The position numbers and the translations under genes are program-made. 62,562 nt of DNA, taken from UHGV virus genome UHGV-0106067. One strand, written 5' to 3'. The stretch comes from a virus. Below are positions 26,076 through 27,030 of the stretch, piece by piece; position 1 is the stretch's first letter; each line of letters starts with the position of its first letter. The notes under the pieces are model-generated. The model saw nothing but the letters and a program-made list of their open reading frames with translations. It made no database searches and was not told the DNA's origin.

Positions 26076-26750
26076 TCATATAGAGGCTGAATCTGATCTT
26101 TTTTGGTCACATCTGGCTTCCACCATTGCAGGCAGAGTGAAGGCGTAGACTAAAAACATTTCGGTAAAACTCAGTATCTGGCTTGCCTCAATTGGTGTGA
26201 ATACTTCATCTGTATGAACTGCTTTATTGGCATCTATTCGTACAATATGAGCCCATTCCTTCATCTGTTCAGTGATCAGGCCTTTTTTGTAAATCATCTG
26301 AATACGTTGCGACAGAGATTCTTTTCCTGCTTCATCGCCGAGCAGTTTTTTCGTTGAGATATCGAGGACTCTGCGACAAAGAATAACCACTGTGTCGTAC
26401 CGCCTCCTCTGTAAATCCTCTTTTGCCTCAACAAAAGTACGGTCTGCAACCGGGGGCGTATATTCTGGTGCGGTAATTTTTTTGACCGCAGGATAGATCT
26501 TGCGGAAACGGTACTGGCTATTTCCTGAAATCAGAATATCAAGGTCTTTTTTCTGGCTTTCCGCCATAGGGCCGTGATAGTGGTCTGATGGGATTTCAAC
26601 AATAGCAACACCTCCTTGATGACAACTTCTGCATACAAAAGCGACGTTAAAAAGAGGTGTTTTTTCAATTTGTTTTTCGGCAAATGCCTCAATAACAGCT
26701 CGCTCTTTTAAACAGTGCGGGCATGTAATGTCAAAGGAGACTAAACCCAT
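26076..26750 (-). CDS. Zn-ribbon + DUF4145-domain protein (defence-associated domain)
   Basis: CPHC...CRSC ribbon. C-terminal YDTVVILCRRVLDIS...IVRIDANKAVH...EMFLVYAF fits the DUF4145 pattern. SD GAGGAA. Start at M25 of the listed ORF. Confidence 0.6.
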   Translation of the reverse strand: MGLVSFDITCPHCLKERAVIEAFAEKQIEKTPLFNVAFVCRSCHQGGVAIVEIPSDHYHGPMAESQKKDLDILISGNSQYRFRKIYPAVKKITAPEYTPPVADRTFVEAKEDLQRRRYDTVVILCRRVLDISTKKLLGDEAGKESLSQRIQMIYKKGLITEQMKEWAHIVRIDANKAVHTDEVFTPIEASQILSFTEMFLVYAFTLPAMVEARCDQKRSDSASI

Positions 26751-27030
26751 GGATATTCCTCGCGAAATTAAAGAAATTAACGAAATCATTGAGGTTACTG
26801 ATCGCCCCGAGTTTACCCTCATGTGGCGCTATGAAACAGGAACCGACGAGCAAAAATACATCATGGTTGCAGCATTGGCTGTGATGGCGATAGAAAGGGA
26901 GCGGATGGAAAGGAACGTAATAGTTATTCCTGAGAGAAATGATTCACCGGATCTGAGATGGCAGGGGCCGGAGTGGATGTGGCAATCCGGTGATGATATT
27001 TCTTCTCTGGGGGAAGCGCCGCCAGAATGA
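26749..27030 (+). CDS. Hypothetical protein; its start codon overlaps the divergent DUF4145 start (CCATGG)
   Basis: SD AAGGAGA 8 nt upstream. 93 aa. Confidence 0.4.
   Translation: MDIPREIKEINEIIEVTDRPEFTLMWRYETGTDEQKYIMVAALAVMAIERERMERNVIVIPERNDSPDLRWQGPEWMWQSGDDISSLGEAPPE

Follow-up and report, generated by a model that had tools for sequence, protein, structure and literature searches.

A divergent RAZR-like RNase gene of temperate phages and its conserved partner gene with interlocked start codons

The DNA considered here is a stretch of 62,562 nucleotides from the virus genome UHGV-0106067 (the whole of this stretch is referred to as the window), and its subject is a pair of divergent genes next to the integrase gene int whose start codons overlap. 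The minus-strand gene encodes a protein in which a zinc ribbon is joined by a linker to a DUF4145 domain, and we refer to it as the RNase gene; the plus-strand gene encodes a small protein that we refer to as the partner. Both ATG codons lie within the palindrome CCATGG and have two nucleotides (AT) in common (Table 1). Within the RAZR-like RNases the locus represents a divergent clade found in prophages, in which a partner gene, conserved but not previously described, overlaps the RNase gene head-to-head; that the larger gene belongs to a defence family is unsurprising, and what is new is the interlock, together with the question of how a prophage can live with a ring-sensing RNase of its own. 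A preliminary description made from the sequence alone had pointed to a ribbon fused to DUF4145 and to interlocked starts, each with a good Shine-Dalgarno sequence, and both observations stand: the RNase protein contains CPHC (C10, C13), CRSC (C40, C43) and IVRIDANKAVH (residues 169-179) and matches the Pfam DUF4145 model over residues 118-197 (E 3.4e-9), and the Shine-Dalgarno sequences read GAGG for the RNase gene and AAGGAG for the partner.

The ribbon region forms four beta strands in an AlphaFold2 model and gives weak matches to Rpb9 zinc-ribbon profiles. The C-terminal two thirds of the protein have the HEPN fold, and HEPN-MNT toxins (7ae2, 5yep) are among the top structural neighbours. 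Across 37 homologues the four cysteines are invariant, as are R171, N175 and H179. Conservation is uneven along the protein: mean pairwise identity within the family is 45% in the ribbon, 28% in the linker and 68% in the C-terminal half of the HEPN domain. The preliminary description had taken DUF4145 for a domain that is fused to effectors; DUF4145 is itself a divergent HEPN RNase family (PMC3710099). In other resources the protein matches phrog_1305 (PHROGs), and its best defence model in PADLOC is PD-T7-4, at a weak score (E 1.4e-3, 16 bits).

RAZR, the ring-activated zinc-finger RNase of E. coli UMB1727 (PDB 9y9c; Zhang et al., Nature 2026, PMC13017515), is the new name of PD-T7-4; it was characterised in 2026 as a single protein in a host without suitable ring proteins of its own. 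Its N-terminal Cys4 zinc ribbon binds phage ring proteins and determines specificity; a conserved linker leads to the C-terminal DUF4145/HEPN domain, whose catalytic residues are R146 and H154, and alanine mutants of these residues lose defence (PMC13017515). RAZR alone is not toxic, even when overproduced; it forms a 24-mer around rings of the Erf-like protein Gp77 or of portal, and the ring-bound form cleaves single-stranded RNA non-specifically, with abortive infection as the outcome (PMC13017515). The combination of a ribbon with DUF4145 now has in RAZR/PD-T7-4 a characterised prototype (PMC13017515).

For a comparison at the level of families, RAZR-proper genes were taken from viral contigs, nine of them were aligned, and the resulting profile was compared with that of the window family by hhalign. 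One of the fetched genes matches chain 9y9c_OA over its full length (E 2.5e-112). The two profiles align over 170 columns with a probability of 95.3% and an E value of 2.2e-8, and the alignment joins both zinc knuckles (those of the window protein fall on C16/C19 and C49/C52 of RAZR), the proline-rich linker, and RIDANKAVH with RIVGNQAVH of RAZR; 9y9c_OA is also the sole DUF4145 chain matched in the PDB. The proteins are of nearly the same length (219 amino acids in RAZR, 224 in the window), have the same order of parts (Cys4 ribbon with CPHC...CxxC, proline-rich linker, DUF4145/HEPN) and the same catalytic spacing R-x3-N-x3-H, vary most in ribbon and linker, and are often prophage-borne. By this profile comparison, the window protein belongs to the RAZR family over its full length, though as a distant member. 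Two other candidate relatives were set aside: a DUF4145 protein of Escherichia phage Cartapus (25% identity to the window protein), considered as a bridge to RAZR, has no PDB match, and DS-38 of DefensePredictor, a validated system with HEPN and zinc-finger domains, is a different protein of 366 amino acids (WP_001313577.1).

Each of the two ribosome-binding sites falls within the first six codons of the opposite gene. Longer readings are possible for both frames (a minus-strand frame of 248 amino acids from 26822, and a plus-strand frame from 26728). RNase homologues all start at MG(L/I/M), that is, at the interlocked ATG; the partner homologues start there as well, and the same two overlapping starts have been annotated independently in other genomes by NCBI PGAP (RefSeq) and by GenBank depositors. 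In one Xenorhabdus locus the annotated overlap is 23 nucleotides. All family members have an SD-like GGAG, AGGA or GGGA 6-11 nucleotides upstream of the RNase ATG. A Shine-Dalgarno match of at least 4 nucleotides for the partner, placed within RNase codons 2-6, is present in 18 of 32 partner-bearing sequences and in none of the genuinely partnerless subclade; two of the 20 sequences classed as partnerless show it, and both come from loci with a truncated partner. If the RNase and its partner are both translated from these conserved starts, their mRNAs must be complementary across both Shine-Dalgarno sequences.

We collected 115 loci with an RNase homologue, which reduce to 74 distinct pairs of protein and upstream region. 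In 46 of these 74 the start carries CATG together with a partner of at least 50 amino acids that has the RPE motif; CATG is kept in every partner-bearing locus, and the RNase proteins at these loci are 36-100% identical to the window protein. The interlocked arrangement is thus kept well beyond chance, because CATG and an intact partner persist in 46 of 74 loci down to 36% identity. Four further loci show the interlock with a partner shorter than 50 amino acids: in L051 and L052 the partner is genuinely truncated or decayed, in L076 the contig ends within it, and in L014, from a distant Burkholderia phage, the CATG is there by chance. The remaining 24 loci, mainly a subclade of 212-amino-acid proteins that begin with MAM and distant relatives, have neither interlock nor partner, and an interlocked divergent open reading frame was found at none of 10 RAZR-proper loci. 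Two phage homologues are poorly represented in current annotation: that of Klebsiella phage 2b LV-2017 has been left unannotated (L013, 3001-3624), and that of Burkholderia phage phi644-2 has been split or mis-called as gp54/gp55 (L014, ~3001-3618).

A single-sequence search with the partner finds close E. coli relatives only. When the DNA opposite the starts of diverged RNase homologues was translated, the same partner appeared in Atlantibacter, Yersinia and others, with a core motif of ...(D/E)RPEF(T/N)L.QRYE...(D/E)QK...ALIGKLIEQDR... and a variable, disordered C-terminal tail. A profile built on it finds 68 clusters across Enterobacterales, none of them named or carrying a Pfam domain, and an exhaustive profile search of 1.84 billion representatives gave 38 hits only. 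The preliminary description had allowed that one of the two frames might lack conservation; both are conserved, and the partner evolves as a protein. Its median ratio of nonsynonymous to synonymous substitution rates (dN/dS, Nei-Gojobori) is 0.12 in frame; three control frames give ~1.0-1.3, and the mirror antisense frame gives 0.27. Differences at codon positions 1, 2 and 3 number 7757, 6159 and 12205. The partner open reading frame is a true gene under purifying selection. In the searchable literature, we found neither the partner family nor the interlock of start codons described.

The two genes can also part company. At some loci the RNase gene has been replaced by an unrelated plus-strand open reading frame of 166 amino acids, homology starts exactly at codon 2 of the partner, and the partner has gained a new GTG start and a Shine-Dalgarno sequence, which indicates that it has value by itself. 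The 166-amino-acid frame has no Pfam family and is followed by a gap of 300 nucleotides; it may be other cargo in the same slot. Of 5426 complete E. coli genomes, 37 carry the RNase gene and 48 the partner. The P0002 allele has kept its partner nearly unchanged, while identity in the middle of its RNase protein is down to 51-57%. A recombination breakpoint exactly at the interlock was considered for this allele and rejected, as segment identities describe a mosaic with a diverged middle; such a breakpoint does hold for the orphan-partner loci.

The pair behaves as mobile cargo. Its extent was read from megablast matches to positions 56-1044/1047 of a query covering 26000-27270, and the flanks of this cassette are common to ~190 Stx phages that do not carry it. 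Elsewhere the cassette is located upstream of ninB, with DnaC/DUF1627/DUF977 on one side and a HigBA or RelE pair on the other, as in Shigella phages 75/02 Stx and POCJ13 and in many E. coli prophages; a position next to int is found in the window and in PhiR12_3. More distant pairs lie between P/DnaB and ninB in Atlantibacter, Yersinia, Morganella and Xenorhabdus, between lysis genes and terminase in Klebsiella, between SSB and DNA polymerase A in Enterobacter, and between a ParE pair and holin in Photorhabdus, so that at least five different insertion sites are occupied in temperate phages. In every map of called genes the RNase gene is antisense and the partner sense to its neighbours; by a cruder tally from open reading frames, 34 of the 46 partner-bearing loci have the RNase gene running against both of its flanks. 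The preliminary description had called the site beside int a classical place for a moron or defence gene. The behaviour it had in mind is borne out, as the module is patchy among similar phages, varies in site and lies beside toxin-antitoxin and anti-defence genes; the place is not typical: most relatives are in late regions or between ninB and the replication genes. Defence genes occur together with anti-defence genes around the module, including Acb2/Tad1-like (Klebsiella), Tad2-like (Xenorhabdus) and BstA_C (Yersinia) genes, and HigBA, RelE or ParE pairs directly adjoin the module in E. coli, Shigella and Photorhabdus.

Taken as a whole, the proposal that a RAZR-like defence RNase is functionally coupled to its conserved interlocked partner stands at an even balance in our judgement, and its parts differ in strength. 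By analogy with RAZR, the RNase is probably expressed in the lysogen, where it would be harmless alone, would be triggered at its zinc ribbon by a protein of a superinfecting phage (for RAZR, large rings such as portal or an Erf-like recombinase), and would then cut RNA non-specifically and abort the infection. An excludon-like switch, with the RNase on in the repressed prophage and with the RNase off and the partner on after induction, is suggested because mRNAs translated from these starts would be complementary at both ribosome-binding sites and because the lytic operon around the RNase gene runs opposite to it; the case for it and the case against it seem to us equally good. The repressed prophage would make RNase mRNA alone. 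Matches of its genes identify the plus strand of the window as the early-left direction, so read-through from PL would be antisense to the RNase gene and sense to the partner: during induction and lytic growth, antiterminated read-through would cross the whole RNase gene in antisense, interfere with its transcription, pair with its translation-initiation region and express the partner. It is possible, though somewhat less than probable, that the partner is a self-immunity or anti-RAZR factor, which shields the lytic cycle of its own phage against RNase made earlier or against related RNases that other prophages encode; by neutralising RNase already present, it would keep the phage's own ring-forming proteins from causing self-abortion. 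The window phage encodes two plausible self-triggers, RecT and a P22-like portal, and the orphan partners may fit a stand-alone anti-defence role. Bolder still, and rather unlikely, is the idea that the partner is the first dedicated phage inhibitor of a RAZR-type RNase and the interlock a hard-wired toggle that ties immunity to the state of the prophage. The RNase of the lysogen would then guard against superinfection, induction would silence its mRNA by antisense and make the inhibitor, and the orphan partners would be anti-defence genes against RAZR-like systems of rival prophages.

Several findings weigh against this proposal. The similarity to RAZR is remote in direct comparison (~21% identity; phmmer E 1.6; profile against the PDB, E 0.066), the standard PD-T7-4 model barely detects the window protein, and a Foldseek search of the PDB did not recover 9y9c. 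The partner is dispensable in whole subclades, namely the 212-amino-acid subclade and RAZR proper, and three relatives with a lost or truncated partner keep the four cysteines and R...N...H. The partner has no recognisable fold, and a role as a nucleic-acid mimic is unsupported, its charge not being consistently acidic (median pI, the isoelectric point, 7.9). A scan of the locus, a family-wide search of the upstream 200 nucleotides and a relaxed scan of 26751-27130 yielded no sigma-70 promoter of the RNase gene, within or beyond the partner frame, that was convincing or kept its position across the family; the weak candidates are a recurring TAAACT opposite the conserved EF(T/N) codons and TTGATC-N16-TATCGT in some members. 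Neither a clear promoter nor a clear terminator of its own was found for the RNase gene in the scans of the locus. Inside the RNase gene, on the antisense strand, lies a terminator-like hairpin with a T-run, 26327-26345 (+), which could block read-through unless the polymerase is antiterminated, in which case partner expression would depend on antitermination. The hairpin rests on two Lys codons that are not conserved in the family alignment, and it may be due to chance (three such sites were found and 1.7 are expected).

Some of these findings would be expected if the partner were an unrelated small phage gene whose coding DNA doubles as the 5' untranslated region and promoter region of the RNase gene, with the interlock a product of compaction that has no regulatory role and the RNase working alone like RAZR. 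RAZR proper and the 212-amino-acid subclade do work, or at least persist, without a partner; orphan partners remain where the RNase gene is gone; the catalytic residues are retained in RNase genes whose partners have decayed; and in P0002 the middle of the RNase has diverged while the partner is almost constant. Such a hitch-hiker would not, however, be expected to travel with the RNase gene as a unit among at least five unrelated insertion sites and to stay with it down to 36% identity, nor to keep an exact two-nucleotide start overlap with reciprocal Shine-Dalgarno sequences without drift and a consistent orientation to the flanking operons, and we regard this explanation as doubtful. Many defence systems couple an effector with a small partner, and the pairing here is strictly conserved in one clade; the small helical partner with its invariant RPE motif suggests a specific binding surface. 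It could therefore be a positive component of the defence, either an adaptor or sensor that would broaden or gate recognition of the trigger or a transcription factor for an RNase promoter within its own gene, a possibility to which we attach a fairly low probability.

A classical addiction pair of HEPN toxin and small-protein antitoxin that stabilises the prophage would have precedent in pairs such as HEPN-MNT, whose toxins are among the top structural neighbours, and the module often lies beside HigBA, RelE or ParE pairs. However, the two genes are divergent and not co-transcribed, the partner matched neither MNT nor any other antitoxin domain, RAZR is non-toxic alone even when overproduced, and relatives that lack a partner or have a decayed one have an intact active site; we therefore consider addiction very unlikely. 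Nor is the large protein at all likely to be a zinc-ribbon DNA-binding regulator instead of a nuclease. RefSeq calls gp19 of Shigella phage 75/02 a 'DNA binding protein', and phrog_1305 bears such a label, but no experimental basis for the label was found, and the C-terminal HEPN fold carries the invariant R-x3-N-x3-H that is catalytic in RAZR; this reading has next to no probability.

Among known systems, RAZR itself is encoded by a single gene, whereas the window RNase has an interlocked partner gene. In the HEPN-MNT type VII toxin-antitoxin systems (SO_3166/SO_3165, PDB 5yep; Aphanizomenon HEPN/MNT, 7ae2) the genes form an operon, whereas the window has divergent genes with overlapping starts and a partner that is no nucleotidyltransferase; and the HEPN protein there is a known toxin, whereas the window RNase, judged by RAZR, would probably be harmless by itself. 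In an excludon, divergent genes have overlapping 5' transcripts and are expressed in a mutually exclusive way (PMC7154746, PMC12288877). The window resembles this arrangement in that the genes are divergent, their predicted mRNAs are complementary across both translation-initiation regions and their functions are probably opposed, lysogenic defence against lytic growth; it differs in that the overlap takes in the start codons themselves, which makes it an extreme case. In IS10 RNA-IN/RNA-OUT and in type I toxin-antitoxin systems such as symE/symR, an antisense transcript covers the Shine-Dalgarno sequence and start of a potentially harmful gene; in the window no dedicated small RNA would do so, but an mRNA that itself encodes a protein and probably belongs to a long transcript of a phage operon. 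Gifsy-1 HepS (PDB 9oik), another HEPN abortive-infection protein encoded by a prophage, is likewise cargo, and its HEPN effector responds to a structural protein of the infecting phage.

A prophage that carries a ring-sensing RNase faces a situation on which the published model of RAZR is silent: after induction, the cell that contains the RNase also comes to contain the portal and recombinase rings of the prophage itself. The locus offers a natural and widely conserved candidate solution, an antisense start-interlocked pair with a dedicated small protein. If the proposal of a coupled RNase and partner is true, the partner would be the first anti-RAZR or self-immunity factor, the pair would be a clean excludon model made of two protein-coding genes with overlapping start codons, and there would be an annotation handle for the DUF4145 genes of Stx-type and other enterobacterial prophages that now go under 'hypothetical' or 'DNA binding protein'. 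Even if the partner proves irrelevant, the locus extends the RAZR family to a divergent prophage clade.

Table 1. Features of the RNase-partner locus, of the rest of the window and of related loci. Positions are those of the window except where a locus handle (L) precedes them.
Feature	Position	Strand	Remarks
RAZR-like RNase gene	26076-26750	minus	224 aa (amino acids): Cys4 zinc ribbon, variable linker, DUF4145/HEPN
Zinc-ribbon domain	26595-26750	minus	residues 1-52
Zinc-ribbon Cys codons	C10 26721-26723; C13 26712-26714; C40 26631-26633; C43 26622-26624
Predicted HEPN catalytic motif	26214-26240	minus	R171-I-D-A-N175-K-A-V-H179 (R-x7-H)
Partner gene	26749-27030	plus	93 aa
Partner conserved core	26749-26919	plus	residues 1-57; predicted three-helix bundle, invariant RPE motif
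CCATGG interlock	26747-26752		both starts within palindrome
RNase gene ATG	26750-26748	minus	read as CAT 26748-26750
Partner gene ATG	26749-26751	plus
Shine-Dalgarno of RNase gene, GAGG	26761-26758	minus	7-nt spacer; within partner codons 4-5
Shine-Dalgarno of partner, AAGGAG	26734-26739	plus	9-nt spacer; within RNase codons 4-6
Mobile two-gene cassette	26055-27046		~96% identity to phages/prophages carrying it at another site
166-aa replacement frame	L114 2699-3199; L137 2181-2681; L012 2186-2686	plus	orphan-partner loci
Defence/anti-defence neighbour genes	L110/L113 1286-1570; L135 4987-5466; L009-L011 8490-8648
DUF1737/SASA esterase	628-2601	minus	after methylase/specificity genes
Type I specificity subunit	3212-4306	minus
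N6-adenine methylase	4366-6327	minus
Antiterminator Q	6991-7521
cI-like gene	12321-13034		early-left block, upstream of Rha, RecT, YqaJ
HicB	14662-15006	minus
HicA	15003-15257	minus
Rha, RecT, YqaJ	between cI-like and Roi-like genes		early-left order
RecT recombinase	17717-18736
Roi-like gene	25265-26002		early-left order, before RNase gene
xis-like HTH_17 gene	27278-27445	plus
int	27429-28673	minus
Presumed attP gap	28674-28939
Frame of 2783 aa	28940-37291	minus	directly beyond int and presumed attP gap
P22-like portal	55797-57941

The phage of the window is a lambdoid podophage similar to 933W and Sepvirinae, and many Stx-converting phages match its int-proximal region at 98% identity. The interval 27084-27270, which separates the cassette from the xis-like gene, is 98% conserved in ~190 Stx phages, where its annotation is 'hypothetical protein', and this interval contains a minus-strand promoter-like site (27262-27233) and a terminator-like hairpin (27109-27097). 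An Rfam scan of 25800-27500 found no known RNA above threshold; a sub-threshold match to HgcC (26 bits, gathering score 50) lies outside the cassette at 27133-27255 (+). The xis-like gene and int are convergent and overlap by 17 nucleotides at their 3' ends. The slot 3' of Q, which is the stx site in Stx phages, holds the methylase and specificity subunit genes here, and an R subunit was not seen. The preliminary description had called the RNase gene the only minus-strand gene in the early-left block, which is incorrect, as HicB, HicA and int are also on this strand. Antisense to the plus-strand early-left operon that contains it, the HicA/HicB toxin-antitoxin pair makes a second cargo module of this kind.

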